Positions 54,347 to 57,759 of a stretch of DNA of 57,759 nt are shown one piece after another. The DNA is from a virus (taxonomy: Duplodnaviria; Caudoviricetes): IMG/VR virus record IMGVR_UViG_3300048930_001334, positions 1 through 57,759 of that record. The stretch is one strand, 5' to 3'. The position numbers were made by a program, and so were the translations under genes. Each line of letters begins with the position of its first letter. Within the stretch, counting starts at the first letter, position 1. The notes below the pieces were generated by a model. It did no database searches, had not been told where the DNA came from, and saw only the letters and a program-made list of their open reading frames with translations.

Positions 54347-55258
54347 ATGTTCAAGACCCTCAACATCTTCCGCATCACCTCCGGCTGGAATCAGGAGCCC
54401 GACACCGGAACCATGGACGACATGGCCGACGCCATGCCCTTCACGCCCTGCACCGCCACGCAAGACAAGTCCGTGGGCTGGGTTCCGCCGCGTGGTGAAA
54501 ACCACGGCGCCCTGGTCGAGTCCATCAACGGCCACAGCATCATGAAGCTGATGATCGAAACCAAGTCGGTCCCCAGCGCCACGGTCAAGAAGAAGGCCCA
54601 GGAAGCGGCCGACCACATCGAAGCCACTACCGGCCGCAAGCCCGGCAAGAAGGAAATGAAGGAACTGCGCGAGGACGCGCTGACCGCCCTGCTGCCCCAG
54701 GCTTTCCCCAAGCAGACCGCCGTGCTGGTGTGGTTCGACTTCGCCGCTGGCCTGCTGATGACCGACGCCAGCAGCCAGGGCAAGAGCGATGAAGTCATCA
54801 CCGCCCTGGTGCGGACCTTCGACGGCCTGGCGCTGGCCTACGTGCAGACCAAGACCGCACCGCAAGCCGCGATGACCGAATGGCTGGTGGCCACCGACAC
54901 CGAATACGAATGGCCCGAAGGATTCGCCATCGAACGCGCCTGCGAACTGCGCAGCGCCGACGAAGAGAAGTCGGTGGTCAAGTTCAACCGCCACAACCTG
55001 CAGAACGATGTCGTGCGCCGCCACATCAGCGAAGGCAAGCTGCCCAAGTGGGCCGCTATGAGCTGGGAGGGCCGCATCGGCTTCGTGCTGACCGACACCA
55101 TGCAGCTCAAGAAGATCGAGTATCTGGAGGGCGTGTTTGAAGACCGCGCAGACGACGAAGAAAGCGGCTTCGACGCCGACGTGGCGCTGGCCACCGGTGA
55201 ACTGCGCAAGCTGATTCCTGCGCTGGTCGATGCCCTGGGCGGCGAGGTGGTGGCATGA
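54347..55258 (+). CDS. rdgC: Recombination-associated protein RdgC
   Basis: MFKTLNIFR...GWVPPRG...LLPQAF...FDADVAL.TGEL..LI..LVDALGGE. Confidence 0.93.
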   Translation: MFKTLNIFRITSGWNQEPDTGTMDDMADAMPFTPCTATQDKSVGWVPPRGENHGALVESINGHSIMKLMIETKSVPSATVKKKAQEAADHIEATTGRKPGKKEMKELREDALTALLPQAFPKQTAVLVWFDFAAGLLMTDASSQGKSDEVITALVRTFDGLALAYVQTKTAPQAAMTEWLVATDTEYEWPEGFAIERACELRSADEEKSVVKFNRHNLQNDVVRRHISEGKLPKWAAMSWEGRIGFVLTDTMQLKKIEYLEGVFEDRADDEESGFDADVALATGELRKLIPALVDALGGEVVA

Positions 55259-55563: not shown

Positions 55564-55764
55564 ACAAGAGCATTGACGATCTCGTGGATCGACTCCGCAA
55601 AGAGACTGCCGCCCTGCGCGTAGCAGCGAACAACGTGGTCGGAGAGAACGAAGCCCTGCGCGAGCGGGTGGCGAGCCGTGGAGCACGGCTTCGATGACAG
55701 CAAGACGCCCAACACCGAAGCGCAGCGGGCCGCCGCAGGCGGTCCGACTGGCGCGCAGAGTTAG
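55560..55764 (+). pseudogene. Small coiled-coil ORF, apparently frameshifted near 55671
   Basis: MNKSIDD...EALRERV stops at 55697. Removing one G at ~55671 continues it as RAVEHGFDDSKTPNTEAQ...AQS* through attC-like site 1, in the same Asn frame as the two downstream genes. Confidence 0.45.
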
Positions 55765-55766
55765 AG
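55707..55766 (-). repeat. attC-like site 1 (60 bp)
   Basis: Minus strand CTCTAAC-TCTGC-GCGCCAGT-CGGACCGCCTGCGGCGGCCC-GCTGCGC-TTCGGT-GTTGGGC. Confidence 0.8.
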
Positions 55767-55776
55767 GGCCGACACG

Positions 55777-56121
55777 ATGGAAACAGTTTGCATTTTGGTT
55801 GGCGGGCCAGACCGGGTGATTGTTGACCGGCTGAACAAGAAGTGGCTCTTTGAAGACCACCCGTATTGCGGGCCTGTGGTTATTGGAAAGAACGGTGACC
55901 CGCTCGAAAACCAGCCGCCTGAAAGCTCGCCATTCTGGGAGGCCGTGCAATGCTGGTATGACCAGGGCAAGCGGACGCGAAAGCCGCTGATGAACGAGAC
56001 GTGGTGCATTTGGGACAAACCGACCATGCAGAAGATGCGCCACCTTGGCGGGGTGCATTACATGCTGGTGACGGATGAGTCCTCTAACACCCCAATCAGC
56101 GGCGGCACGTCCGCTGCATAA
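55777..56121 (+). CDS. Hypothetical cassette-borne protein
   Basis: 114 aa (WLFEDHPYCGP...SPFWEAV..W); lies between sites 1 and 2, stop codon inside site 2. Confidence 0.7.
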   Translation: METVCILVGGPDRVIVDRLNKKWLFEDHPYCGPVVIGKNGDPLENQPPESSPFWEAVQCWYDQGKRTRKPLMNETWCIWDKPTMQKMRHLGGVHYMLVTDESSNTPISGGTSAA

Positions 56122-56132
56122 CAGAGTTCGGC
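56082..56132 (-). repeat. attC-like site 2 (51 bp)
   Basis: Minus strand GCCGAAC-TCTGT-TATGCAGC-GGACGTGCCGCC-GCTGATT-GGGGT-GTTAGAG. Confidence 0.8.
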
Positions 56133-56153
56133 ACTGCCGATGGAAAGGAAACC

Positions 56154-56597
56154 ATGAGCGACTACGAAAACGCCGCATTTGAAGAGGCTGCAAAGCACAT
56201 TCTTGCACTGGCAAGGTCAGGAGATAAGTACCAAGACGGGTACACGCAAACGTGTTGGGAGCTATGGAAGGTCCGCGCAGCGCTTCCAGGGGCAGCGGCA
56301 GCAGACGTGCTGGCCGAACGCCAGCGCCAGATCACAGCAGAAGGATGGACACCAGAGCACGACGACGAACACATGGAGGTCGATGCCGGACGCGGATTGA
56401 CAGAACTGGCCCGCGCTGCAAAGGCGTATATCGAAGCTGATGTGTACAACTGGCCTTGGACCCCAATCAGCTTCAAGCCGACATCTCCGCGCCGCAACCT
56501 CGTGAAGGCCGGCGCACTGATCCTCGCCGAGATTGAGCGATTGGACCGCTTGTCGCCGAACACCCAGCTCACCGGCCGCAGGTCCGGCGCATCGTAG
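56154..56597 (+). CDS. Conserved phage hypothetical protein, cassette-borne
   Basis: DVLAERQRQI..EGWTPEHDDEH...WPW...RRNLVKAGALILAEIERLDR; AAGGA SD; stop inside site 3. Confidence 0.8.
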   Translation: MSDYENAAFEEAAKHILALARSGDKYQDGYTQTCWELWKVRAALPGAAAADVLAERQRQITAEGWTPEHDDEHMEVDAGRGLTELARAAKAYIEADVYNWPWTPISFKPTSPRRNLVKAGALILAEIERLDRLSPNTQLTGRRSGAS

Positions 56598-56605
56598 AGT
56601 TTGGC
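56555..56605 (-). repeat. attC-like site 3 (51 bp)
   Basis: Minus strand GCCAAAC-TCTAC-GATGCGCC-GGACCTGCGGCC-GGTGAGC-TGGGT-GTTCGGC; 2 bp after the integrase stop. Confidence 0.75.
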
Positions 56606-56607
56606 AA

Positions 56608-57759
56608 TCACCAAAGCCGCGCGGCGAGGTCTGAGCCCCGAAGATTCGCGTAGCGCGCCAGCATCGCCATGCTGCGATGTCCGGTGATCTTGGCTATCTG
56701 CATCTCGCTCAGTGTCGTGCGCTCAAACAGGCGGCTGGTGGCCTCGTGCCGAAGGTCGTGGAAGTGCAAGCCCTTGCACCCAGCCGCCTCAAAAATCCCG
56801 CCTGACCTGTTGTTGTGGAACAACTTGGAAAGCCGGTCTGACAGCTCGGCCAGGTCGCGCTCTTTGACCGATCCATCCCACCACGGGAACAGCGCGTCAG
56901 GCTTGGCGCAGGCCGCCGCATCGCGCCCGGTGTCGATGTAGGCCGTCAGCACTGCCAGCGCGACGGAACTCAGCGGCACCTGCCGCTTGTCGCCGTTCTT
57001 GGTCTTGTCCAGAAACACCGTGCGCCGCGGCAGATCCACCTGATCGAGCGTCAGCGTGTATATCTCGCGCAACCGCATCGCCGACTCCACCGCCAGGATG
57101 AACAGCACGCGCAGCGCCTGGGCGTGCTCCAGTTTCAGCGGGCGCTGCTTGCGCGGCAGCACGCCGGCGTCCAGCACGGCCAGGATGCGCTCGTACTCTC
57201 CCTGCTCAAGTCGCCGGTCCCGGCTGACATCCTCGCGGCCATCGCCGGCCATGGCCGCATCCGCCTTGCTGTACTGCGCATAGCCATCGGGCAGCGTGCG
57301 CAGCGGGTGGTCCGGCATCGTCAAATGGCCCTTGCGCATCCCCCAATCCGTGCAGCGGGCCAGCGCGCCGACTTTCGCGCGGATCGTGGCCGGCGCCAGC
57401 TTCTCCACACGCTTCAACTCGGACACCCACGCATCCACCCAGGCGGCATTGATGCTGGCAAGCGGCGTGTCTCCCTTGGTCTTGCAGACCGCCGTGAGCT
57501 GCTGCACGTCCTTGGGCTTCGGGCTGGCCTCGCGCATGTAGAGCGTCACCAGGCCGTCGATGGTCAGCACGCGAGACGGCGCCTTGAGTTCGCCGGGCAC
57601 GATGCCGCGGTCCAGCAGTGCCTCGACCTTCTTCACGTACTCGCGCGCCTGGTCCTCCTGCTCTTGCGGGTAGGTTAGATAGATCGGCTTTTCCAGCAAG
57701 CCGGCGCGCTTGATGACGAACTGAACCGTTCCGTTTGGGAATCGCTTGATGCCTGCCAT
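56608..57759 (-). CDS. int: Tyrosine recombinase / phage integrase (Rci/HP1-like)
   Basis: AMRLREI (R), KTKNG (K), FHDLRHEA (HxxR), ITGH, LARY (Y). Confidence 0.93.
   Translation of the reverse strand: MAGIKRFPNGTVQFVIKRAGLLEKPIYLTYPQEQEDQAREYVKKVEALLDRGIVPGELKAPSRVLTIDGLVTLYMREASPKPKDVQQLTAVCKTKGDTPLASINAAWVDAWVSELKRVEKLAPATIRAKVGALARCTDWGMRKGHLTMPDHPLRTLPDGYAQYSKADAAMAGDGREDVSRDRRLEQGEYERILAVLDAGVLPRKQRPLKLEHAQALRVLFILAVESAMRLREIYTLTLDQVDLPRRTVFLDKTKNGDKRQVPLSSVALAVLTAYIDTGRDAAACAKPDALFPWWDGSVKERDLAELSDRLSKLFHNNRSGGIFEAAGCKGLHFHDLRHEATSRLFERTTLSEMQIAKITGHRSMAMLARYANLRGSDLAARLW

Follow-up and report, generated by a model that had tools for sequence, protein, structure and literature searches.

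Three attC-type sites and two back-to-front gene cassettes beside the integrase gene of a provirus: a probable integron cassette cluster lacking an integron integrase

The virus record IMGVR_UViG_3300048930_001334 (Duplodnaviria; Caudoviricetes) is a complete IMG/VR provirus, and in its terminal 2.5 kb a string of plus-strand genes is followed by a head-on minus-strand tyrosine integrase gene. The last genes of this string, which belong to the early operon, are separated by three related imperfect palindromes, as it was described in an original prediction made from the sequence alone. This raises the question whether these palindromes are genuine attC sites, i.e., the recombination sites of integron gene cassettes, and which enzyme might move such cassettes into and out of a phage genome. 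The window analyzed here is the whole stretch of 57,759 bases; it spans all of the record, host DNA is absent, and additional copies of the palindromes beyond the window therefore do not exist.

The locus very probably represents a genuine cluster of attC sites without an integron integrase (IntI) in a prophage, composed of three sites and two one-gene cassettes. Four direct observations carry this reading, i.e., the attC-type sequence and structure of the sites, the complementary cassette boundaries, the presence of the second cassette as a near-identical module elsewhere and the absence of an IntI in the record. A cluster of attC sites lacking integron integrase (CALIN) is defined by two or more attC sites in a neighborhood free of integron integrases (Qi et al., 2023; PMC9892861, section 2.1). 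TIGR02249, the family model for integron integrases, has no match in the 57,759-base record, and the adjacent integrase finds its best NCBIfam match in XerC with 48.5 bits against a cut-off of 335. As at least two attC sites are present and no IntI is found in the record, the locus falls under the definition of a CALIN, in agreement with the original prediction of an IntI-less array. A complete integron, with intI, attI and the promoter Pc beside the array, is not present.

Sequence and structure of the three sites

A pattern devised post hoc from the palindromes (AACACC, 25–55 bases, AGAGTT) matches three times in the window, always on the plus strand and always at the array, compared to a mean of 0.09 matches in 100 shuffled windows, none of which reaches three. 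Sites 2 and 3 share 73% identity over 55 ungapped bases. The similarity to genuine attC sites was evaluated with a covariance model built from 44 genuine sites of 13 chromosomal arrays, which are located beside IntI genes passing the TIGR02249 cut-off. To this end the DNA beside 23 intI genes was fetched and sites were picked by their attC box geometry together with end boxes that chain with those of the neighboring site. A simple box-geometry scanner is too permissive, giving 66 matches in the window, and was applied solely in combination with the chaining of boxes within IntI-headed arrays. The window had no part in building this test, which nevertheless depends on our own picture of an attC site.

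Run unfiltered over the whole window, the model returned the three sites as its top matches, all of them on the minus strand and over the full model. Site 1 (55705–55768, minus strand), the attC of cassette A, which is innermost and furthest from the integrase gene, scored 31.7 bits (E 4.9e-5, model positions 1–71), site 2 (56080–56134, minus strand), the attC of cassette B, 19.2 bits (E 0.03) and the degenerate site 3 (56553–56607, minus strand), which begins 2 bases past the integrase stop codon, 11.5 bits (E 1.6); these E-values are rough because the calibration of the model was shortened. The plus-strand reading of site 1 is level with site 3 at 11.5 bits, site 3 standing fourth in the window, and the best unrelated match is a partial one of 9.2 bits. 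Sites 1 and 2 are recognized by the attC model and site 3 is marginal. The minus strand, on which the sites had originally been read, is clearly favored when both strands are scored (31.7 versus 11.5 bits at site 1). As controls, eight integron stretches free of seed sites gave 14 matches, all 14 on the expected strand with 23–48 bits, and no match at E ≤ 1 was obtained in 80 phage loci (579 kb) holding relatives of the 147-amino-acid cassette protein described below.

For all three sites the model alignment returned the minus-strand layout that had been proposed, in which a spacer of 5 bases is followed by an 8-base box carrying one additional base, by GGAC, by a box of 7 bases and by a second spacer of 5–6 bases. 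The L'' and L' boxes, the spacers and the extra bases of sites 1 and 2 align to the model without gaps save for one spacer base, and site 3 shows two non-pairs in its inner box. The extra bases are located on the 3' arm of the plus strand. The minus strand corresponds to the attC top strand and the plus strand therefore carries the recombinogenic bottom-strand sequence. The inner boxes of site 2 nearly match those of a genuine chromosomal attC site (L199:1064–1127), and the hairpin body of site 1 (55711–55762) was found in other contexts with 0–5 mismatches. As a side observation, the site-1 hairpin (55702–55768) is present in the wastewater sequencing run X1 with a summed contig depth of about 800 and in numerous flanking contexts; the hairpin is apparently a member of an attC family with very many copies, as would be anticipated for a large array on a chromosome.

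The AAC and GTT cores are present in all three sites. The inverse core of attC sites follows the consensus RYYYAAC. For the core itself the consensus is G|TTRRRY (PMC9892861, section 3.4). Full agreement with RYYYAAC/GTTRRRY is restricted to the minus-strand R' box of site 1 (GTTGGGC), and the other five boxes are each off at one position. Sites 2 and 3 span 43 bases from AAC to GTT, compared to 47 bases in the shortest genuine site collected. Both the shortness of these two sites and the deviating cores had been noted in the original prediction.

Cassette boundaries and orientation of the cassette genes

Assuming a crossover in the minus-strand G|TT, the sites delimit two cassettes on this strand, namely cassette A (55713–56087, 375 bp), containing attC1 and most of a 114-codon gene, and cassette B (56088–56560, 473 bp), containing attC2 and most of a 147-codon gene. 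The box GTTAGAGG (55760–55767), which follows site 1, is the reverse complement of CCTCTAAC (56081–56088) at the start of site 2, the end boxes of cassette A thus being complementary over 8 bases, and GTTCGGC (56126–56132), which follows site 2, is exactly reverse-complementary to GCCGAAC (56555–56561) at the start of site 3. The R' box of each site hence matches the R'' box of the next site, as it was originally claimed, over 8 and 7 bases. This matching is the mark of gene cassettes, and the genuine integron arrays show the same complementarity of neighboring boxes over approximately 7–11 bases. The outermost halves, GCCCAAC and GTTTGGC, are complementary at six of seven positions. Moreover, 74 loci with relatives of the 114-amino-acid gene were collected, some of which are copies (L126/L127; L179/L180 overlap), and 12 of these 74 show 7–11 complementary bases between the GTT box before the gene and the AAC box at the gene end. 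Five box sequences besides that of the window occur in these loci, each with its matching partner, i.e., the two ends covary.

Sequencing data indicate that cassette B is a mobile unit. Among the listed sequencing runs, 20 of 24 (from 14 studies) each contain about one fifth of the sampled words of the 2-kb array stretch (share ~0.2); these shares were interpreted only after the reads of four runs had been aligned, and the uncovered parts of the stretch are no evidence of absence there. Contigs of the runs X1, X2, X3 and X20, which stem from four studies, match the window from 56084 or 56085 (56111 where the contig begins there) up to 56561, 56564 or 56576, with 0–4 mismatches in ~480 bases, and both flanks are then unlike the window. 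The few additional matched bases at the ends are core letters common to most sites, and the likeness ends at the predicted AA|C junctions. The 473-bp cassette B is a discrete module found in different surroundings, near-identical across wastewater, soil, bioreactor and isolate data sets. For cassette A, the three closest of 31 protein relatives (94, 85 and 83% identical) resemble the window protein as far as the Asn codon formed by the AAC of the box and continue with unrelated tails. The limits that had been predicted for both cassettes are borne out by these data, and the diverging protein tails suggest indirectly that cassette A is a mobile unit as well.

The opposite assignment of strands was tried and rejected. 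With the plus strand as attC top strand, G|TT crossover would yield cassettes at 55761–56126 and 56127–56599, each with a whole gene, but site 1 scores 11.5 bits on the plus compared to 31.7 bits on the minus strand, and the likeness of both the mobile module and the protein relatives stops at AAC and not at GTT. An X1 contig that joins 55764 to 56084 was not used, as its shorter side measures only 28 bases.

The copies of cassette B also bear on the explanation that the array is an inert relic, i.e., a piece of a host integron or a set of cassettes inserted once, with no working host IntI, dead sites and genes that have become fixed phage genes. Such a relic would agree with the lack of an IntI in the record, with the degeneration of site 3 and with sites 2 and 3 being shorter than any genuine site collected; furthermore, no variant of this same phage was found in the searches, and the IntI of the Thermomonas genome that holds a similar array (see below) matches its family model in two pieces and may be broken. 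However, the near-identity of cassette B in four studies (0–4 mismatches in ~480 bases) with different flanks points to recent movement, the boundary boxes are still perfectly complementary over 7–8 bases, and unrelated prophages that hold other sets of cassettes show the back-to-front layout again. We consider a relic to be unlikely.

The 114-codon gene (55777–56121, plus strand) and the 147-codon gene (56154–56597, plus strand) are located on the plus strand while the attC top strand is the minus strand; both genes are therefore antisense to attC and read in the direction of the phage early genes. An attC site and a gene that reaches the cassette end without a stop codon make up each cassette, the stop codon being supplied by the next site: the stop codons at 56119–56121 (within attC2) and 56595–56597 (within attC3) lie past the junctions 56087/8 and 56560/1. 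The canonical cassette form, with a gene that has the sense of the attC top strand and does not extend beyond the cassette, is not found here. The stop codon lies within the next site in 12 of the 13 loci with matched boxes, the window counted. Within the 74 loci the covariance model gave 60 matches at E ≤ 1 in 22 loci, 58 of which are on the strand opposite the gene and two of which overlap stronger opposite-strand matches at the same coordinates. Similarly, 32 cassettes of these arrays, part of them redundant, were evaluated by a heuristic based on the GC content at third codon positions, and in 30 the best open reading frame was antisense to attC. In contrast, the convincing genes of the chromosomal array L193 of Thermomonas (signal peptides, sigma factor, methyltransferase) are sense to attC.

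The 114-codon frame is coding, as its differences from 36 relatives amount to 993, 794 and 1749 at codon positions 1, 2 and 3 of the plus-strand frame. Its product is of unknown function: Pfam, PHROG and NCBIfam returned no match for it, and an Atlas look-up gave scores of at most 0.84, which is chance level. The 147-amino-acid protein matches nine PHROG families, with phrog_9763 as the best (E 1.5e-34), and has at least 576 relatives in viral contigs, the likeness stopping near residue 132. Residues ~47–135 form a common phage domain, and it was observed that the domain of residues 47–135 represents the C-terminal part of much longer proteins in several PHROG families. The Atlas model of this protein is structurally nearest to unnamed phage protein clusters and to an Ead/Ea22-like cluster (template modeling score 0.56), which may serve as a lead only.

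A promoter scan found no promoter-like site at the array, and a terminator scan found no T-tract terminator on the plus strand, the terminator-like matches numbering 3 versus 3.0 expected and all lying on the minus strand. With no promoter-like site, and no terminator-like site on the plus strand, expression by read-through from the early promoter is plausible. Within 55760–55779, the box after site 1 contains GAGG 9 bases before the ATG of the 114-codon gene, suggesting that the recombination core may double as ribosome-binding site of this gene.

Related prophage arrays and the recombining enzyme

The same layout was found in other prophages. In a prophage region of a Thermomonas chromosome (L117) seven attC sites and six small plus-strand genes are followed by a serine recombinase gene; the array is preceded by a methyltransferase gene and a phrog_210 gene, and its cargo includes a helix-turn-helix protein and a phrog_1273 protein. 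This region is 0.6 Mb away from the intI gene of that genome. A second provirus (L017) encodes an integrase 64% identical to that of the window and has three attC sites on the integrase strand, 1–2.2 kb downstream, with antisense genes. One of these (L017:2302–2847, minus strand) is a Mom-like DNA-modification gene (phrog_1384, E 2.7e-35) that constitutes a back-to-front cassette between two attC sites. As these arrays stand beside different recombinases and most relatives of the window's integrase lack attC sites, the array goes with the position in a temperate phage and not with one integrase family.

This is of importance for a further explanation, by which the tyrosine integrase of the phage itself recognizes the hairpins and moves the cassettes. 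Its gene ends 2 bases from site 3 and lies on the strand of the attC top strands, and the related integrase of L017 has a downstream array in the same orientation. However, the protein is not IntI-like, 25 of its 27 relatives have no attC nearby, the Thermomonas prophage has such an array beside a serine recombinase, and the sites fit a model that was made solely from IntI-headed arrays, the extra-base geometry included. A role of the phage integrase in moving the cassettes is thus highly improbable.

The favored reading, a genuine CALIN, would instead imply that the IntI of the host acts in trans and inserts cassettes by exchange between two attC sites, with crossover in the minus-strand G|TT. 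IntI was reported to insert cassettes at genomic GWT sites as well (Loot et al.; bioRxiv 10.1101/2022.09.11.507474). The first insertion might have occurred at a weak site behind the integrase gene, composed of the body of site 3 and the left half of site 1, or alternatively at a secondary genomic site; site 3 is perhaps where the first cassette landed. If cassettes enter at a site that is already there, the recipient hairpin would stay beside the integrase gene and its outer half-box would be left at the far end, which fits two facts, namely that site 3 is the weakest site and that the outermost half-boxes nearly pair. The cassette genes would then be expressed by read-through from the early (PL-type) promoter, as it was originally proposed. 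TIGR02249 scores above its cut-off in three of the five genomes that hold relatives of the 114-amino-acid gene. In evenly sampled genomes of the class to which one of these belongs, it was observed that the share of integron integrases is high, as the family model scores above its curated cut-off in 74 of 201 genomes; with the unpublished genomes G044 and G146 excluded, which contributed nothing further to the analysis, the figure becomes 72 of 199.

Several points weigh against the assignment as a genuine CALIN. Site 3 stays at 11.5 bits (E 1.6), site 2 with 19.2 bits is below the 23–48 bits of genuine unseen sites, and several core boxes deviate from the RYYYAAC/GTTRRRY consensus. The E-values are rough, as mentioned above, and the model is not blind to expectations because the scanner used for picking seed sites encodes attC geometry. 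The folding-energy z-scores of the single sites 1, 2 and 3 on the plus strand (−1.75, −2.23 and +0.57) are unexceptional, and folding energy was therefore left out of the evidence. The antisense orientation of the genes is opposite to that of the canonical cassette. By the covariance model, 25 of the 27 integrase relatives have no attC nearby. Neither an excised circle nor a variant of the same phage with a different cassette set was seen. Finally, the host IntI acting in trans would have to be supplied from outside a record that is a provirus without host genome.

Hairpins that lie between the genes of one operon might also have a regulatory or structural role in the phage transcript, e.g., as terminators, as processing sites or as mosaic linkers, with flanks that are complementary by incident, and attC sites are thought to hold weak terminators (PMC9892861, section 3.4), but with no T-tract terminator on the plus strand, terminator-like matches at chance level and two Rfam matches, likewise at chance level, this already disfavored explanation leaves the covarying end boxes, the modular copies elsewhere and the attC model scores unexplained and deserves practically no credence. 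No support was obtained for site 3 as an old terminator behind the integrase gene, and no hairpin after the stop codon was seen in the loci of the 27 relatives.

As to the surroundings of the array, rdgC (54347–55258, plus strand) is followed by two small open reading frames before the 114-codon frame, and the phage tyrosine integrase gene (56608–57759, minus strand; Pfam Phage_integrase, 1.4e-21) is the neighbor of the array on the other side and does not encode an integron integrase. The array is thus flanked by the phage integrase gene and by the last of the backbone genes in the rightward early operon. No related array was found in GenBank phages, where matches are confined to the integrase, to rdgC and to the common domain of the 147-amino-acid protein. 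In the 27 loci of integrase relatives a search for the end motif of the window gave nothing convincing, and both cassette genes are absent save for weak matches of the 147-amino-acid protein in L022 and L023 and an rdgC gene in L028. In most of these loci (L004–L030) the integrase stop codon is, as judged by eye, succeeded by the 3' end of an excisionase-like gene in convergent, antisense orientation; in the window the attC array stands at the place of this 3' end, and no such gene was noticed there.

Two further loci deserve mention. A metagenome contig (L123:350–1145) encodes an 89% identical relative of the 114-amino-acid protein, with an AAC box that directly adjoins the terminal ~40 codons of an integrase-like gene, the stop codon of which lies within a GTTAG box. 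Low-GC fragments of CoA-transferase and AhpC-like genes are located on either side, as read from the translations; the contig is probably a chimeric assembly, and the candidate for a cassette abutting an integrase gene was set aside. The IntI gene of the Thermomonas genome (G001:C1:2181927–2182864; L188, L191) matches the family model in two adjacent pieces, 2–255 and 252–314, suggesting a frameshift, though more than 20 attC sites follow.

Relation to known systems and implications

Integron sites and CALINs in phages are already known, and the locus is a well-supported further example in an unusual, recurrent orientation. Qi, Rajabal, Ghaly, Tetu and Gillings described 17 CALINs in 10,705 phage genomes (Qi et al., 2023; PMC9892861), and five of six phage attC sites tested recombined with attI1 under IntI1 (section 3.4 therein). 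These CALINs resemble the locus in having at least two attC sites with cassettes in a phage genome and no IntI nearby, as well as in phage-type cargo such as DNA-modification genes, for which the Mom-like cassette of L017 is a counterpart. As described in the main text of that study, two virulent phages have cassettes in the direction typical of bacterial arrays and another has divergent attC sites, whereas in the window, in L117 and in L017 the genes are all antisense to attC and read across the junction. In the passages of that paper drawn on here, supplements aside, no betaproteobacterial prophage is mentioned and the word "Burkholderia" is absent. Likewise, a back-to-front layout with phage-family cargo and borrowed stop codons was not found in searches of published full texts, supplements aside.

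The sites share with those of sedentary chromosomal integrons (the Thermomonas array L193 and 12 further IntI-headed arrays) the AAC and GTT cores, the 5-base spacer, the 8- and 7-base boxes with an extra base and the central GGAC or CGAC; in places the inner boxes differ very little, and neighboring boxes are complementary over ~7–11 bases in both. However, sedentary integrons are headed by intI and, by definition, attI, whereas the window has no IntI, and the convincing L193 genes have the opposite orientation to attC. Toxin-antitoxin cassettes that carry their own promoter are often reverse-oriented. Such cassettes of chromosomal integrons are, as are those in the window, independent of the integron promoter Pc, according to the sections of PMC13108822 that deal with them; in contrast to them, the cassettes of the window lack both a promoter-like site and their own stop codon and seem to depend on the phage operon. 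A further likeness exists to cassette insertion at genomic attG sites and to isolated attC sites (SALINs): as demonstrated by Loot et al. (bioRxiv 10.1101/2022.09.11.507474), IntI seeds cassettes outside the integron, where they can be expressed by a nearby promoter. The attG sites described there are double-stranded with a GWT consensus, whereas in the window a third attC-like hairpin, instead of a bare GWT site, borders the integrase-side cassette.

It is known that bacteria capture genes by means of integrons, and many anti-phage defense systems were recently shown to reside in integron cassettes. Here, integron sites organize the small early genes of a phage itself. As a tentative proposal, which we regard as possible rather than probable, temperate phages of integron-bearing hosts might keep a dedicated back-to-front array beside their integrase gene, where the early operon ends, filled from a phage-specific pool of stopless antisense cassettes with phage-family genes, and the SOS-induced IntI of the host might exchange these cassettes between phages in the same window of stress that induces prophages. 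If the host IntI shuffles the cassettes, phages and hosts would use the same recombination machinery for opposite ends, and the back-to-front orientation would be a signature that separates phage from host cassettes in databases. In that case, integron recombination would act as a general driving force behind the mosaicism of phage accessory genes, possibly including anti-defense genes, and the array described here is a concrete candidate source of a part of the mosaicism that is found beside the integrase genes of temperate phages.

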